The notes under the pieces were generated by a model. The model was not told where the DNA came from, searched no databases, and saw only the letters and a list, made by a program, of their open reading frames with translations. From assembly GCF_001447785.1 (NCBI RefSeq), contig NW_015162557.1, positions 127,886-186,765 of the forward strand: a stretch of DNA of 58,880 nucleotides. The letters run 5' to 3'. The stretch is from Gekko japonicus. Its lineage: Eukaryota. Of this stretch, positions 9,996-55,621 are shown piece after piece. Position numbers and translations under genes: made by a program. Position 1 is the first letter of the stretch; every line of letters begins with the position of its first letter.

Positions 9996-12900
9996 ATGGC
10001 CGCCAACGGGGCGGCCGTGGAGGAGGAAGCGGCCCTCGACCCCTGCTCAGCCCTGCGGCTGGTGGCCGCCGCCGCCTGGCACACGGTCCGGGAGCACCGG
10101 ATCCAGGACTTCTCCCGCGTGTTGAGACTGTTGGAGGCCGTGGAGGATGCGGCCCCCGAGCTGGTTCACTACCGGCACCTGGCCAAGTTGCGTCTCGGCC
10201 TCCAGGCCAAGGTGAGGCAGGAGGCGGCCCGTCCGGCTGTGCCACTTTCACTCCGGGGGAGTGAGGGAATTCTGGAGTGATTCTCCCACAGTGCTTTGCT
10301 TCCCAGCCCGGCTTCACTTCTTTCCGGCTCCTCCTTTTCTCAGGTGATAATGAACATGCTGAGGGAGGCAGAGTCAGACGGCAAGATCTACGATGCTATC
10401 GATACATACTTTCCGGAGCGAGAGCCACCCCCCCACCCCAAAGCCGTGAGTACTTGCAGTCTTGAGAATGCAGGCGGAATCCCTGCTTGCTCTTGTGAGC
10501 TGCCCCCGACTTACCACCCGTGTTCCCTTTAAGCTGTGTTAGTGTGAGATAGCTTGCTGTTTTTTTAGCCTCCGGCTCACACATTTCTGTCTTCACTCAG
10601 GAAGGACGGCTCTGGAGCAAACTGATTTATCCAGTAGCCAAATCGCTTGCTCACAGCTTTAATGCCAGGAGCTCACAAAGTAGAATTTTTGCTCACAAGA
10701 CTCCACAGCCTTAGAGGGAGCATTGCTTACCAATCTGCTTCTTCCCTTCCCAACAGACCGCTCATGATTTGAAATTAGTGCGGGTGGCCCGGGAGAACTT
10801 CCGGGATCTGGTCCTGGGACTGCTGAGTGACCAAAGACAACGGGAGACATACGTGCAGGTAAGTTAGGACTGGAAAATGAACAGGGCTGTGGCTCAGTGG
10901 GAGAGAGCATCTGTTTAGCATGCGGAAGGCCCCGGGTTCGATCCCTGGCATCTCCAGTTAAAGGACCAGGCAGTAGGTGAAGTGAAAGACCGCTGCCTGA
11001 GACTCTGGAGAGCCATGAAGTGGGGCTGTGGCTCAGTGGTAGAGTGTCTACTTGGCATGCAGAAGGCCCCAGGTTCGATCCCCGGCATCTCCAGTTAAAG
11101 GACCAGGCAGTAGGTGAAGTGAAAGACCGCTGCCTGAGACTCTGGAGAGCCATGAAGTGGGGCTGTGGCTCAGTGGTAGAGTGTCTACTTGGCATGCAGA
11201 AGGCCCCAGGTTCGATCCCTGGCATCTCCAGTTGAAGGACCAGGCAGTAGGTGAAGTGAAAGACCGCTGCCTGAGACTCTGGAGAGCGATGAAGTGGGGC
11301 TGTGGCTCAGTGGTAGAGTGTCTACTTGGCATGCAGAAGGCCCCAGGTTCGATCCCCGGCATCTCCAGTTAAAGGACCAGGCAGTAGGTGAAGTGAAAGA
11401 CCGCTGCCTGAGACTCTGGAGAGCCATGAAGTGGGGCTGTGGCTCAGTGGTAGAGTGTCTACTTGGCATGCAGAAGGCCCCAGGTTCGATCCCCGGCATC
11501 TCCAGTTGAAGGACCAGGCAGTAGGTGAAGTGAAAGACCGCTGCCTGAGACTCTGGAGAGCTGCTCCCAGTTTGAGTAGATGGCAATGACCTTGATGAAC
11601 CAATGGTCTGATTCAGTATAAGACAGTTCTGGAGAGGAGCCGTGGCTCAGTGGTATATCTGCTTGGCATGCAGAAGGTCCCAGGCTCAATCCCTGGCATC
11701 TCCAATTGAAAGGACTAGGTCAGAGGTGTCAATTTGTTATGAGGGACTGCTGAAGACGAGGTGGTCCTGCCATGCTGAAGCCACAATTGGAGTGGCTCCG
11801 CCCACTCCCTCCCGAGCAGTCTCCTGTTCCCCCCCCCCCGCACTAGTTATTTGTGGGCCGCATAAGAGCCCTGGACGGGCCAGTTCTGGTCTTGGTAGTA
11901 GCTGATGTGACGGATTTCTGCTTAACACCTTGGAGAGCTGCTGCCAAGTTCAAGTAGACAAGACTGACTTTGATGGGCCAGCAGTCCGATTCGGTAGAAG
12001 ACCTCTTCCTGTGTTCATGTGGCAGGAGTGACGACAGGGAACACCTTGAGAGGAAGCTCTGGGAACAATCTGTTTGCATGACGGAAGGGGTGGTGGTGTT
12101 TGATTCCTGTGTTGGGGTCAAGCAATACTGTGACGCAGGGGTCATTTCGTAGAAAAAGAGGTGCAGGGGCTCATTAGCATAACTCATTAACATGACTTTT
12201 TTGCATAGGCCACACCCCCTGACATCATCGGAAGTGTGTCAGAAGGCAACACCCATCGCTCAGGCTCCCCTGGACTGTTTTGGATTGCTAGCTATTGGGG
12301 GGGGGGGAATGTAGAGCATCGTCCNNNNNNNNNNNNNNNNNNNNNNNNNNNNNNNNNNNNNNNNNNNNNNNNNNNNNNNNNNNNNNNCCTTGGAGTTTTT
12401 GGGTTTGGGGGGGGGGGGTGGCTCTGCAACTGACCTGGCTGCTTCTTGCTCTGACTGAGGGCTGCTGGGAGCAGGGGCGGGGCTTGTTGCATGTGCCCGC
12501 CCCCTGGGCTCCTTACTGCCGGAGCTCCGCTCCTGTGCGCTCCTGTAGGAAATGACCCCCGCTGTGACGTATTTACATAACGTTAAGAGACAATGCAAGA
12601 CTTGATAGGCCATTTCCGTCTGAGCCGATAAACTCCCTTCTTGCAGAAGCACTTGGAAAACGACTATGGGGAAACCTTCCAAAGCGTAGTGGAGGAGCTC
12701 TTCTACGATTACCTGTGGCAGCTGGAGAGCACACTGCCCAAGCCCCGTTTCCAGCAGGTATGAGTTGGAACGATGCATTTCCTGGGCCCTAATTATGTGC
12801 TGGCCCTTCTGTCTCGCTGTTTTCCAGCCGTTCAGGGGCGGGGCTGTCACTCTGTGGTGGAGTTCCCAGTTTGCATGTGGCAGGTCCCAAGTTCAGTTCC

Positions 12901-15900
12901 CTGGCAACGGTTGGGGAAAAAAAGGTCAGCCGCAACAGAGCTGACACAAGCCATGGCCAGACCGACGCTGCCATTTGGAGTGGACGGTCTTGAGCAAGCG
13001 GAAGGGAATGCTATAGTTGAATGTCCTAAAGTGAATTAAAATACTCTGATTCTGCTGCTGGTAGGTGGGGGCTGGAGAAAGAAGGGGAAAGAGCCTAAAA
13101 CCCCGGGTAAATCTGAGAGAGAACTATGAAATAGAATTCATTATTTACTTCATTCATAGCCCACCTCTCTCCCAGTTAGGGTCCCAAACTGACTTGCATT
13201 GTTCTTCTTTCCTCCATTTTATCCTTACAACAACCCTGTGAGGTAGATTAGACTGTGAGTGTGTGCCTAGCCAAGGGCCGCTAAGCCAGCTTCTATGATG
13301 GAGGGTAGATTCGAGCTTGGGTCTCCCCGATCCTAGTCCAAAACTGTAACCGCGACACCGCAGATGCTTGTGTTGTGTGTACATGCAAAAGTATGGATAA
13401 ATTCCAATCAGTAACACCGAGAAAGGTCAAACTAGAGACACAAAACCGCATGACTTGTAAGAGAATGGAGAAGTTTCAGCCACAGTCGGGTAAGGTTGAA
13501 CTTTGACAAGGTTCAAAAAGCGGAACTTGGATTTCAGACTCTGACTTCGGAGGTTGAATCTTGGCTGTAAGAACGTTGAAAAGGTGGCATACAAACACTG
13601 TTCCCTCTAAGCTGAGTGAGTGTGAGCCAGCTCACAGTTTTTTAGGTTCCGGCTCACACATTTTTGTCTTAGCTCAGGAAGGAGGGCCCCAGAGCAAACT
13701 AATTTATTACAGTAGTCAAATCGCTCGCTCACAACTTTAATGCCAGGAGCTCACAAAGTAGAATTTTTGTTCACAAGACCCCACAGCTTAGAGGGAACAT
13801 TGCATACAAATATTAGAAATACAGAAATACAGAAATTGAACTGTAGCTACATCCTTAACCAGGATTAGCACTTGAAGCTGAAGTCAAGAGTTCAACCTTA
13901 CCCTGTATGCACAGTGTTGGAAACAAGAATGAACACCAGAAACAGAAGAATGGATACGAAAAATTCTGTCCATGGCAGAGATGGACAAAATTACGAAGAA
14001 ACTGAATAACAGGGAAGATCTTGACTTTTTTGAAGAATGGAATGACTTTAAACTTTATCTAGAAAAAAACTGGGATGTGAAGCACAATTTACTATGTTTA
14101 GAACAATATTGAGATTAATTGATGTTATCTTAAGATGTACTGGGGGGTCAAAGGGGGAAACATTGCGGGAAGCCACCAGGAGGGAGGGGGGATATGGGAA
14201 TATAGGTATAGGTTTAAGAATGATAATAGTTTTTTTTTTAACTGTAAGAGGTTATTTCCATGAAAATAAAAAATTCTTTTACCAAAAAAGAGTTCAACCT
14301 TACCCCTCTGAGTGTAGCTGAAATTCAGCTCAGTGTTGTATGTCATTTGATCTTACTTGAGATGTGATGGTCCGGGGGGGGGGGGGGAAAAAAATTAAAA
14401 AAAATTCCCCCCCCCTGAAGACTACCCTCCCCCCGTTTTCCCAGTGGAAAAACTGGAAATGCCGGGAAACACTGATGAAGCATTAGAAGATCTCATGAAA
14501 TATATATTTTTTCTGGAATGAATGAAATGTTCTTTAAGGCCAGTTTTACTCTCTCAATTTAAGTGGTGCGAGGATGCTTTTACAAAAACCATTCCCAGCA
14601 TTAAAAATGGTTGTCCCTGTGTGTACTATAGACGTGCACAACGTATTTTCCTGGGTATATTTGTTTAAACATCAGTATAAATTCTCCGCTATTAATTTGC
14701 TATAAAATCTAGGGTACCGTAGTGTTCCCCTGGGCGCCATGTTGGGGGATCAGTGTGCTAAACCCAGAGGAGGGACCGCTTTTCCCCCTTCACCCGCTGG
14801 ACCCACAGCCAAGCAGGGAGCTGTTAGCCTACAGTCTCGTCTTTTGGAGTTTTGTCTTGCACTGCCTCTGGCTCGGCCCTGACAAAGTCTGGAAAAGCCC
14901 CAATTCTGCATTTTCCTCTCCAGCTGCTGAAGGCCGCTCACACGCCGGATCCCGGCCAGTCTTCCCCCGATCCCAGTATCCTGTGCAGATACCTCTCAGA
15001 CATGGGGTACCAGACCACAGGTGGGTATGCGGGGGCTGCAGCATGCGCCAGCGCTGGTCATTCCGTCTTCTCCCCTGTTCAGTCCCGTCCGTCCTTGTCC
15101 TCACCAGTGTTCCCTCTAAGCTGAGTTAGTGTGAGCCAGCTCAGTTTTTTAGCCTCCAGCTCACAGATTTTTGTCTCAGCTCAGGAAGGAGGGCTCCAGA
15201 GCAAACTAATTTATCCAGTAGCCAAATCACTCGCTCACAGCTTTAATGCCAGTAGCTCACAAGGTAGAATTTTTGCTCACAAGGCTCCACAGCTTAGAGG
15301 GAACATTGTTTTTTGAACAGTGTTTCTCCCTCCCAGAGTTCTCCACACCTCCGTGCTGTCCCGGCCAGTCCAGGCCCGTGTACCAGAGCGAGGACAATCA
15401 GCAGCAGCAGCCAGGGACATCCGAATCCAGGCAACCGCTGAACCCGCACAGGAGCAGAAGAAAGAGGAGCTGCCCGCCCTGTGCGCCGGAACTGTAAGCA
15501 CCTCCCAGCCCCGCCTCCTCTGCCCCCTCCTGCTCCTCCGACCCTGCTCACGGCATCCTCTCTTCCCACTTCCAGGGATTCCCCGGGGAACCACACAGGC
15601 CTCCGGTTGCCAGGCGACCACGAGACAGGTAGGTCTTGGTACTTCCGTGCTATAGAACTCTGCCATGAGGTTGACGATAACTGGTTTTTCTCTTTCCCCA
15701 CCTTCAGGTATGTTTGTTTAATTCATCTACACCCTGCCTCTCTCCCCAATGGGGACCCAAAAGCGCTTACATCCTTCTCCCCGCCTCCGTTTTATCCTCA
15801 CAACAACCCTGCGAGGGAGGTCAGGCATGATTTGGGAGGAGCTGGCTCCAGCGTTCTGCCGGGAGGCGTGTCAGTAGCCTCTTTCCTGGCACAGCCCCTC

Positions 15901-17671
15901 TTCTTGCCACAGGAGCCGTTTGTCCCCCCCGCCCACCTCATGTCTCTCTACCTTTGTCTGTGTTTGGCTGTTCTCTGAGCCAGTTTGGGGTAGTGGTTAA
16001 GTGTGCAGACTCTAATCTGGGAGAACTGGGTTTGATTCCCAGCTGCTGCTGGATGACCTTGAGCAAGCCATGGTTCTGATAAGAGCTGTCCTTGAAAAAC
16101 AGCAGTTTCTTTCAGAGCTCTCTCAGCCCCACCAACCTCACCAGGTGTCTGTTGTGGGGAAGGGAAGGGAAAGGAGTCTGTAAGCTGCTCTGAGACTCCT
16201 TTGGGTAGTGAAGGGCAGGGTATAAATCCAATCTCTTCTTCTTGAACTGTCTTGTCTCTAGTAAGGAGGGGAAGGGAGACAGATTGCCAAGGGGAGCTAG
16301 TTCTGGGCCTTTTATTTATTCCCTTATTTCCTCCATGTATACCCCCCAACAGGGACCCAAGACTACTCACGTCATTCTCCTTTCCTCAGTTTCATCCTCA
16401 CAAGAACCCTGTGAAGTAGGTTGGGCCAAGAGTGCGTGACTGGCCCAAGGTCACTCCCAGCAGGCTTCCCTGGCTGCGTGGATTCGAACCCGGGTCTCCC
16501 GGATCGAACACTCTAATCAGAAAGGGCAGGAAAAGGCAGCTTACGAATGACATTGGCGGAAGAGGCTGGGCCCTGCACTCCCCTCAGCCCTGGGCCTTTG
16601 TCTCTTGAAGCTCCACCTGGCGCCGCTCAGAGGCGTCCTCCCCAAAAGGACAGCAGGCAGCTTGCGGGCTCCCCAGGCATGTTGAATCACCCCAGAGCCC
16701 ACTGGCCACAAAACCACCCCCTCCCCTGGGGAAGATGCGGCTGGGGGCGGTGGCGTCAGAGGGCACAGCCGATCCAGCCAGGGCAAGCGCGCGCCCCCCC
16801 AACTCTGCCGTCTGTCCTCTTCGCAGGTGAACCTGACGACATCGTGGCCGATTCAAGTGGCGAAAGGGAGAACTCCCCTTTCAAGAAGGTGAGGCCAGAT
16901 CCGGCAGGGAGCTGTCGGGGCGAAGGGGGGGCTCGGGAGACCTCTGGAGGAGGCCCAGCTGAACGGGGAGGGTGGGAACAGCAGAGGGGAGGGGGTGGGG
17001 CCCAGGTGGACCTGAAGGTGGCCTGGCAGGCTGTGTCGGGAACGCAAGTGGGTCAAGGCCTGGCTGGCTTGAGGCTTCCCTGTGGTTAAAGGGGAGCAGC
17101 TCAGTGTGTGTGTGGGGGGGGAAGCTCCAGGCACTGGTGACCAGTGTTCCCTCTAAGCTGAGTCAGTGTGAGCTAACTAAGTTTTTTTTAGCCTCCGGCT
17201 CACACATTTTTGTCTCAGCTCAGGAAGGATGGGGCTCCAGAGCAGAGTAATTTATGCAGCAGCCGAACCGCTTGCTCGCAGCTTTCATGCCAGGAGCTCG
17301 CAAAGTAGAATCTTTGCTCACGAGACCCCACAGCCGAGGGCAGTGTTCCCTCTACGCTGAGTTAGTGTGAGCTAGCTCACAAGTTTTTAGCCTCCAGCTC
17401 ATGGATTCTTGTCTTAGCTCAGGAAGAATGGCCCCAGAGCAAACTAATTTATGTAGTAGCCAAATCGTTTGCTTACAACTTTAATGGCAGCAGCTCAGAA
17501 TGTAGAATTTTTGCTCACAAGACTCCACAGCTTAGAGGGAACATTGGCCGAGGGGGAGCGTTGCTGGTGACCCTCCTCCCTTTCCCCCAGCAGAGCGAGT
17601 ACCACTGCACCCGCCACAACACCCTCATCCCGACTTTCCGCGACCACCTGGTGGACACCGAGAGCGAGTGA
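9996..17671 (+). CDS. TINF2: TERF1-interacting nuclear factor 2 (TIN2, shelterin): join(9996..10211,10344..10445,10757..10858,12647..12757,14924..15020,15337..15493,15576..15628,16827..16888,17591..17671), ~326 aa
   Basis: N-terminal TRFH-like domain (ALRLVAAAAWHTVR...FSRVL...PELVHYRHLAKLRLGLQAK; DYGETFQSVVEELFYDYLWQLESTLPKP) matches TIN2. C-terminal DIVADSSGE and RHNTLIPTF match the TIN2L motifs DLVLDSDEE and KFDTLIPTL. All junctions are GT-AG and in phase. Exons 6-7 are the least certain. Confidence 0.9.
10884..11629 (+). repeat. 137-bp tandem array (5 units) of a tRNA-Ala-derived (Squam2-like) SINE 5' part in TINF2 intron 3
   Basis: Units start at 10884, 11022, 11159, 11296 and 11433. Each has A box TGGCTCAGTGG and B box GGTTCGATCC. 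The last unit continues into the SINE 3' body. Confidence 0.9.
12136..12561 (+). mobile_element. hAT-type MITE (CAGGGGTCATTT...AAATGACCCC); other copies ~24966-25650, 30204-30596 (-), 51006-51411
   Basis: TIRs; 8-bp TSD ctgtgacg; contains an assembly gap. Confidence 0.8.
13905..14282 (+). mobile_element. L1-clade LINE 3' fragment
   Basis: Encodes ...MAEMDKITKKLNN...EEWNDFK.Y.EK.W, as does the copy at 27607-27972; A-rich 3' end with AATAAA. Confidence 0.7.
15977..16243 (+). mobile_element. Squam3-like SINE
   Basis: Head gagccagtttgg...; tail (TTC)n. Confidence 0.8.
17142..17563 (+). mobile_element. 206-bp-family hAT MITE with a second copy (17341-17546) nested in its right TIR
   Basis: Outer TSD ctggtgac; inner TSD gccgaggg. 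Confidence 0.85.
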
Positions 17672-17886
17672 GTGGTCCTCCGCAGCCGGGGACCCCTGAA
17701 CACTCGGTTGACCAACAACCCCTTGACCAAGAGGTCCCTTTTCTTCTTCCTCTCCCTCCCTCCAAAGACCCGATGCTTTCTCAGACGGGGAGACTCCAGC
17801 CGAGACCTGACTGCCCCCTCTCCCTCCTCCTCCTCCGCGCAACCCGCACACAGCTGGGCCAGCCGCCCGAGGTCACGTCAGCGCTT

Positions 17887-17908
17887 TTTATTATATAATT
17901 TCAGTAAA
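17887..17908. terminator. Paired poly(A) signals: GMPR2 AATAAA (- strand, 17887-17892) and TINF2 AGTAAA (+ strand, 17903-17908)
   Basis: The only AT-rich patch between the TINF2 stop (17671) and the GMPR2 stop (18276): ttttattatataatttcagtaaa. Confidence 0.65.
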
Positions 17909-18275
17909 GACTGTGAAACCTTTGACATTTCTCTCTCCGTCTGTCTCGCGACCCGTCACAGGGAGGGAGGACGGGAAAGCGGGGTTGGGGAGCACCCTCG
18001 CTCACGGGGCGGGGACGCCCCCCTCCCCAGGGTGCACACACTCCACCTCACACACACCCCCCACGTAACTGGAGCTGGGGGGGGAACCAGAGTGTGCACT
18101 GGAATGAACCAGGAAATGGCAGCGGATCTCTGCCTGGAGTGAAGAGGGCCTGCGTGATTGGTCGGCGTCTGGAATGAGAAGATGCTGGACGTCTGGCCAG
18201 TCTCCGCTCCCAAAAGGTAGGCGGATGGGGGTCAGTGTGTGAGCGACCGGAGCCGCTTCCTCCCAAGGCGTCGCG

Positions 18276-29063
<10,788 letters not shown>

Positions 29064-32935: not shown

Positions 32936-39670
<6,735 letters not shown>

Positions 39671-44805: not shown

Positions 44806-55621
<10,816 letters not shown>

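Follow-up and report, generated by a model that had tools for sequence, protein, structure and literature searches.

Gecko TINF2 encodes an ordinary reptilian TIN2 without the FxLxP and PxVxL motifs of mammals

The window analysed here, a 58,880-nucleotide stretch of Gekko japonicus DNA, contains on its plus strand an intact and expressed orthologue of TINF2. The predicted TIN2 protein lacks both the TRF1-binding FxLxP motif and the dyskeratosis congenita (DC) patch of mammalian TIN2. This observation, made in a preliminary description of the DNA, is correct, but the absence is the ordinary state in reptiles and has already been published. We estimate at roughly 80% the probability that the gene specifies TIN2 in its normal reptile form, with a TRFH domain, the C-terminal motifs and, between the two, a short linker that has neither FxLxP nor a DC patch, and that it likely joins TRF2 to TPP1-POT1 and whose link to TRF1 is likely weak or made by another surface.

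A nine-exon model built from the window DNA encodes a protein of 326 amino acids (aa) that matches the annotated XP_015261851 (P0017) at every letter. Coding exon 1 (9996..10211, aa 1-72), which is 100% identical to Gekko japonicus TIN2 XP_015261852, begins the TRFH domain. This domain continues through exon 2 (10344..10445, with AG/GT ends), exon 3 (10757..10858) and exon 4 (12647..12757), and ends in exon 5 (14924..15020). Exon 6 (15337..15493) specifies aa 210-261, a short linker of low complexity with neither FxLxP nor PxVxL, and contains a QPLNP followed by a basic run (15432..15467). Exon 7 (15576..15628) is followed by exon 8 (16827..16888), encoding an acidic motif, DIVADS, that BLASTP aligns with the mammalian LVLDSDEE region, the CK2 site of human TIN2 (PMC5974431). 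Exon 9 (17591..17671) encodes TLIPT (at 17621) and the stop codon. As stated in the preliminary description, the TRFH domain and TLIPT are retained: the Pfam family TINF2_N (PF14973) matches the N-terminal domain with E=2e-40, and the human TIN2 structure 5xyf is matched over residues 18-207 with E=9e-31. Upstream of TINF2 lies a match to Transglut_C (1279-1563, E=4e-4, below the curated cut-off), corresponding to a transglutaminase C-terminal exon, and downstream is the last exon of GMPR2 (18294-18470, minus strand; GMP reductase 2, E=1e-31). The order transglutaminase gene, TINF2, GMPR2 is presumably that of the human locus as well. By its TINF2_N domain, its acidic DS and TLIPT motifs, its neighbour genes and its spliced, expressed open frame, the gene is a TINF2 orthologue. 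At about 10890-11560, intron 3 contains five to six tandem copies of a short tRNA-like unit of ~125 bases.

Public RNA runs, three raw runs from one study and one contig run from a second, were mapped to positions 14850-17950. In the three raw runs, respectively, the exon 5-6 junction is crossed by 8, 82 and 15 reads, the exon 6-7 junction by 6, 143 and 13, and the exon 7-8 junction by 5, 95 and 24. For the junction from exon 8 to exon 9, two acceptors are used that lie 3 bases from each other (4, 52 and 10 reads for one; 12, 114 and 16 for the other). These counts are for the junctions listed, besides which there are 80 weaker ones, and the tissues are not given. The contig run has the same junctions minus the 702-base one. 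The exon 4-5 join is represented by 54 reads with an overhanging end that matches the 3' end of exon 4, the mapped span starting within intron 4. An exon 6 of 157 bp with AG and GT boundaries and the predicted peptide is thus confirmed by RNA junctions on both sides. High read depth within introns 5, 7 and 8 is due to repeats, with more than 90% of the mapped material in two runs continuing unlike the window. The two exon 9 acceptors, at 17591 and 17594, lead to isoforms of 326 and 325 aa, and the annotations of many squamates include isoform pairs with a one-residue difference. In one run (X21), nearly all reads depart from the assembly at 14959, 15382, 15621, 16837, 16843 and 17632, where run X22 is mixed; the difference at 15382 changes a Tyr to Cys, the residue found in Gekko kuhli. 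These fixed exonic differences may reflect another population or a close relative.

It is extremely improbable that the gene model has missed an exon bearing the motifs. Intron 7 does contain an exon-like open stretch (~16611-16782, with a GC donor), but read depth is zero over 16618-16721 in all three raw runs, each of which joins exons 5-6-7-8-9 directly; no missed exon was found between exons 5 and 9 by this check, which the preliminary description had proposed. The 80 weaker junctions, the unspecified tissues and a 63-base assembly gap in intron 3 (12325-12387; the others in the window are at 25090-25295 and 51290-51307) give the idea some room. Against it, six-frame matches include no in-frame exonic FxLxP, and 23 other squamates, independently annotated, concur in length and content.

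Scanning of the whole 326-aa gecko protein detected neither [FYH]xLxP nor PxVx[LI], which bears out the reported absence of FxLxP. To see how these motifs are distributed, we counted them in the tails that follow the TRFH domain, using one protein per species and leaving out proteins without a tail. [FY]xLxP is found in none of 38 sauropsid tails (24 squamates, 7 turtles, 1 alligator, 5 birds and the tuatara, a set that includes five doubtful bird tail models and a partial tuatara protein) and in none of 20 anamniote tails (13 bony fishes, 2 salamanders and 5 cartilaginous fishes). It is present in all four mammalian tails counted (two bats, elephant shrew and beaver). This count leaves out two mammal-type proteins whose annotated sequences lack the motif: P0095, a short form without the relevant region, and P0100, an echidna isoform. 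Mammals were not among the matches of two full-length homologue searches and were recovered by a further search; no full-length frog, marsupial or human TIN2 was identified among the homologue matches. The tail of P0100, isoform X3, has neither motif as annotated, and its composition looks like a frame-shifted reading of the mammalian region.

The same distribution has been described by Myler et al. 2021 (PMC8653790), the available text of which gives FxLxP as restricted to mammals and the DC patch as strongly reduced in reptiles. The non-mammalian TIN2s treated there, including those of Pogona and Chelonoidis, resemble the gecko protein in having a conserved TRFH domain, no FxLxP and an unrecognisable DC patch. 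That list, as available, includes Pogona and the tortoise and does not include Gekko japonicus; a literature search on TIN2 in lizards and geckos yielded nothing but ecology papers on other subjects. The preliminary description had allowed that the state it found might be the documented norm outside mammals and, since this norm is published and holds for 38 of 38 sauropsids, that is the case. The state is therefore not peculiar to the gecko. As originally posed, the finding restates a published one and changes nothing.

In line with this, the TIN2s of other squamates (Gekko kuhli, Heteronotia, Eublepharis, Tiliqua, Anolis and snakes) are about 320-360 aa long, have and lack the same motifs, and in most cases have linkers of 85-102 aa. 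The gecko protein differs from them by ordinary divergence only (50-91% identity). Exon 6 has a mean identity of 39% to 20 other squamates, compared with 59-78% for exons 1-5. Mammalian TIN2L, exemplified by a bat protein of 452 aa (P0227), shares with the gecko protein the TRFH domain (36% identity over 195 aa), the acidic DS motif and TLIPT. However, its linker is 218 aa long and contains FNLAP and PTVML, whereas the gecko linker is 101 aa long and has neither. For human TIN2L, we take the length to be 451 aa, the figure in the preliminary description.

These counts bear on the direction of change. The rewiring envisaged in the preliminary description implies that an ancestral FxLxP disappeared in the gecko or squamate lineage, which we regard as very unlikely. 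Two changes in the binding pocket of gecko TRF1 (E106L and R131C, see below) would suit such a loss, as would the presence of FNLxP in two holostean TINF2_N paralogues, FNLQP at 348-352 of P0105 (Amia) and FNLEP at 363-367 of P0106 (Atractosteus), both close to the mammalian FNLAP. These paralogues lack the TIN2 C-terminal motifs, however, and the TIN2 of Amia is a different protein, in which FxLxP is absent. The likeness may be due to chance or convergence. [FY]xLxP is missing from all 20 anamniotes and from all 14 non-squamate sauropsids, and the motif is mammal-only according to the available part of PMC8653790. FxLxP is thus likely a mammalian gain, as judged from its distribution among sequences, in which case the gecko lost nothing. 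For this motif the polarity proposed earlier is reversed; a loss may be the correct reading in the case of the DC patch alone.

It had also been proposed that QPLNP and the basic run in exon 6 align with the human motif, with its Phe lost. As assessed by shuffling, QPLNPHRSRR is the joint best site in the gecko tail against the bat and elephant-shrew motif, yet with p=0.48. None of the 11 sauropsid tails tested resembles the mammalian motif beyond what chance would give (p 0.18-0.94), the gecko 10-mer used as a query does not recover the mammalian motif in mammalian tails, and neither MAFFT nor BLASTP aligns the two sites. Leu244 is shared by 3 of 6 geckos and by 3 of all 21 squamates compared. 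A derivation of QPLNP from FxLxP is consequently not supported, nor is the loss of a Phe demonstrated. The segment that MAFFT sets against the mammalian motif instead, GNHTGLRLP in exon 7, was also set aside: the site does not stand out by score, and the mammalian DC region is in exon 6.

The basic element itself appears to be under some constraint, to judge from the residues kept (P246 in 16, R248 in 18 and R250 in 15 of 21 squamates). We consider it unlikely, although less so than an ancestral FxLxP lost in squamates, that its Pro-x-Arg-x-Arg-Arg is a degenerate TRF1-binding motif that contacts the acidic loop of TRF1 and provides a useful link without Phe or Leu. Such a role would account for the conservation of these three positions within a poorly conserved exon and for the basic runs shared with turtles, alligator and birds. 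It would also suit the retention in gecko TRF1 of D139, F142 and E146, in a loop that takes three TIN2 arginines in the human structure according to the accessible text of 10.1101/2025.02.14.638354, and the binding of TIN2 by Xenopus TRF1 without the motif, cited in PMC8653790. Set against this are the chance-level matches in 11 of 11 sauropsid tails and the rarity of L244 (3 of 21). In addition, the gecko run lies ~10 residues ahead of the exon 6/7 join, a position matching that of a basic run that precedes the KEN motif in fish TIN2s, and it may as easily be a nuclear localisation signal as a TRF1 contact.

The DC patch has a different distribution. In human TIN2, the patch and a PxVxL site for HP1-gamma (residues 283-287) overlap (PMC6791651, PMC5974431, both as far as available). 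No sauropsid tail, including that of the gecko, contains PxVx[LI] (0 of 38, 1.2 expected), in agreement with the reported absence of the DC cluster, and comparison of the gecko tail with the bat DC motif gives p=0.6-0.93. In the gecko, the exon 6/7 join follows the TRFH domain after only ~55 residues, too few to hold the DC segment. PxVx[LI] is found in 3 of 4 mammals and in 11 of 13 bony-fish TIN2s (P0091, P0109, P0110, P0111, P0146, P0150, P0152, P0166, P0172, P0214 and P0215), against 2.1 expected from shuffles, the pattern having been picked post hoc from the mammalian motif and the fish sequences being related. The anamniote set consists of the proteins with TIN2 C-terminal motifs among 139 newly found ones, plus the coelacanth; its 13 bony fishes, lungfish and coelacanth included, comprise 7 proteins named TIN2 by their source and 6 assigned by likeness. 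The context of the fish motif is conserved (CLxxQPxVxLxRL), and QPxVxLxRL is also common in fish TINF2_N paralogues. The strict pattern is absent from all seven salamander and cartilaginous-fish proteins, where salamanders have [LI]xVxL and one shark QPVVLV.

The spacing of the fish motif is mammal-like: it lies 61-82 residues from the downstream KEN in 9 of 11 ray-finned fishes, compared with 71 in the bat and 115-117 in coelacanth and lungfish. With a six-column fish profile, RPTVML comes out best in the three mammalian tails that are intact (p 0.01-0.03). When fish tails are scored with the bat motif, the fish site comes first in 9 of 13, in a rank test that is partly circular. A 14-column profile also places the DC patch best in 3 of 4 mammals, without significance (p 0.2-0.8), and no pairwise match of the bat motif to a single fish tail is significant (p 0.05-0.9). 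The available text of PMC8653790 reports no significant DC homology in other vertebrates, whereas here PxVx[LI] occurs in bony fishes. Since it does so in 11 of 13 at mammal-like spacing, reptiles have probably lost the motif, the core being ancestral in bony vertebrates and having gone as the sauropsid linker shortened. Short motifs can converge, and the HP1 site in fish is a predicted one. We found no earlier report of PxVxL in fish TIN2 in the open-licence literature on TIN2, HP1, dyskeratosis congenita and zebrafish tinf2, which for preprints means the main text. If the loss is real, reptiles and birds would be natural knock-outs of the hotspot of a human short-telomere disease, keeping their telomeres without PxVxL; and if the core is common to fish, these would offer a model for the hotspot, whose function is unsettled.

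We then turned to the binding partners. A search of the gecko genome with the Pfam TRF family gave no match at E 0.001; a single true exon appeared at E 7.5. We then located TRF1 and TRF2 with a short Myb pattern and compared their TRFH exons with the solved human domains. Exons 1-3 of TRF1 are at L006:7678-7810, L007:476-571 and L007:2829-2959 (G000:C9478), and the TRFH exon of TRF2 is at L009:9804-9887 on the minus strand. According to the accessible text of 10.1101/2025.02.14.638354, R102, E106, Q127 and R131 are four key TIN2-binding residues of TRF1. Gecko TRF1 retains Q127, D139, F142 and E146, as well as R102 by an ungapped count across the exon 1/2 join. In place of E106 and R131 it has Leu and Cys, respectively, as read from a single assembly of a single squamate species. 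Gecko TRF2 retains an Arg at the matching QxLxR position. Of the groove changes that the preliminary description had proposed to look for, two are thus present at key residues, whereas R102, Q127, D139, F142 and E146 are unchanged. The changes would fit a relaxed use of the groove, which is not abolished, and they offer a concrete handle on the question of a six-subunit shelterin in reptiles.

The literature on non-mammalian TRF1 is split. In the available part of PMC5309834, Kappei et al. report that non-therian TRF1 domains do not bind TTAGGG directly, and that TRF1, TIN2 and TPP1 are often unenriched on telomeric DNA in pull-downs from non-mammalian extracts, where the stability of the complex seems impaired. 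Myler et al. (PMC8653790, as available) report that in mouse cells the Myb domain of Anolis TRF1 directs it to telomeres.

Together, these observations point to a TIN2 that would be held at gecko telomeres mainly via TRF2. Its TRFH domain would carry TPP1-POT1, given the conservation of this domain and the finding, in the available part of PMC8653790, that it binds TRF2 and TPP1, with partner motifs conserved in vertebrates. The link to TRF1 would be weak or non-canonical, and the mammalian HP1 contact would be absent. Because FxLxP is missing, gecko TIN2 is predicted to be unable to dock on TRF1 the human way, which is consistent with the two changed pocket residues. This much of the rewired shelterin of the preliminary description stands, but a rewiring special to the gecko does not, the state being common to sauropsids. 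Against our reading of the protein are the retained TRF1 groove residues (R102, Q127, D139, F142 and E146), the Xenopus TRF1-TIN2 interaction cited in PMC8653790, the presence of Anolis TRF1 at telomeres in mouse cells, the small number of mammals counted, the two mammal-type proteins left out of that count, the FNLxP of the holostean paralogues, and the doubtful bird and partial tuatara models. Somewhat short of even odds, we tentatively propose that the two motifs had opposite histories, FxLxP being a mammalian gain and the PxVxL core an ancient element deleted in sauropsids, with the gecko TRF1 pocket (E106L, R131C) drifting since TIN2 no longer uses it. The fish PxVxL motif and the changes in the gecko TRF1 pocket are side results not found in the literature examined.

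Some other TIN2 models have unusual features. Among bird-type models (P0072, P0075, P0077, P0079, P0083, P0087 and P0088), one continues in frame into a ubiquitin-like domain and six share an odd tail, which suggests, from these sequences, read-through into, or mis-joining with, a neighbouring NEDD8-like gene. The gecko window has a NEDD8-like exon near 37790-37835, with GMPR2 between it and TINF2. In the Anolis carolinensis model (P0044), the exon 6-7 region is duplicated within the linker, which is 166 aa long compared with 98 in A. sagrei.
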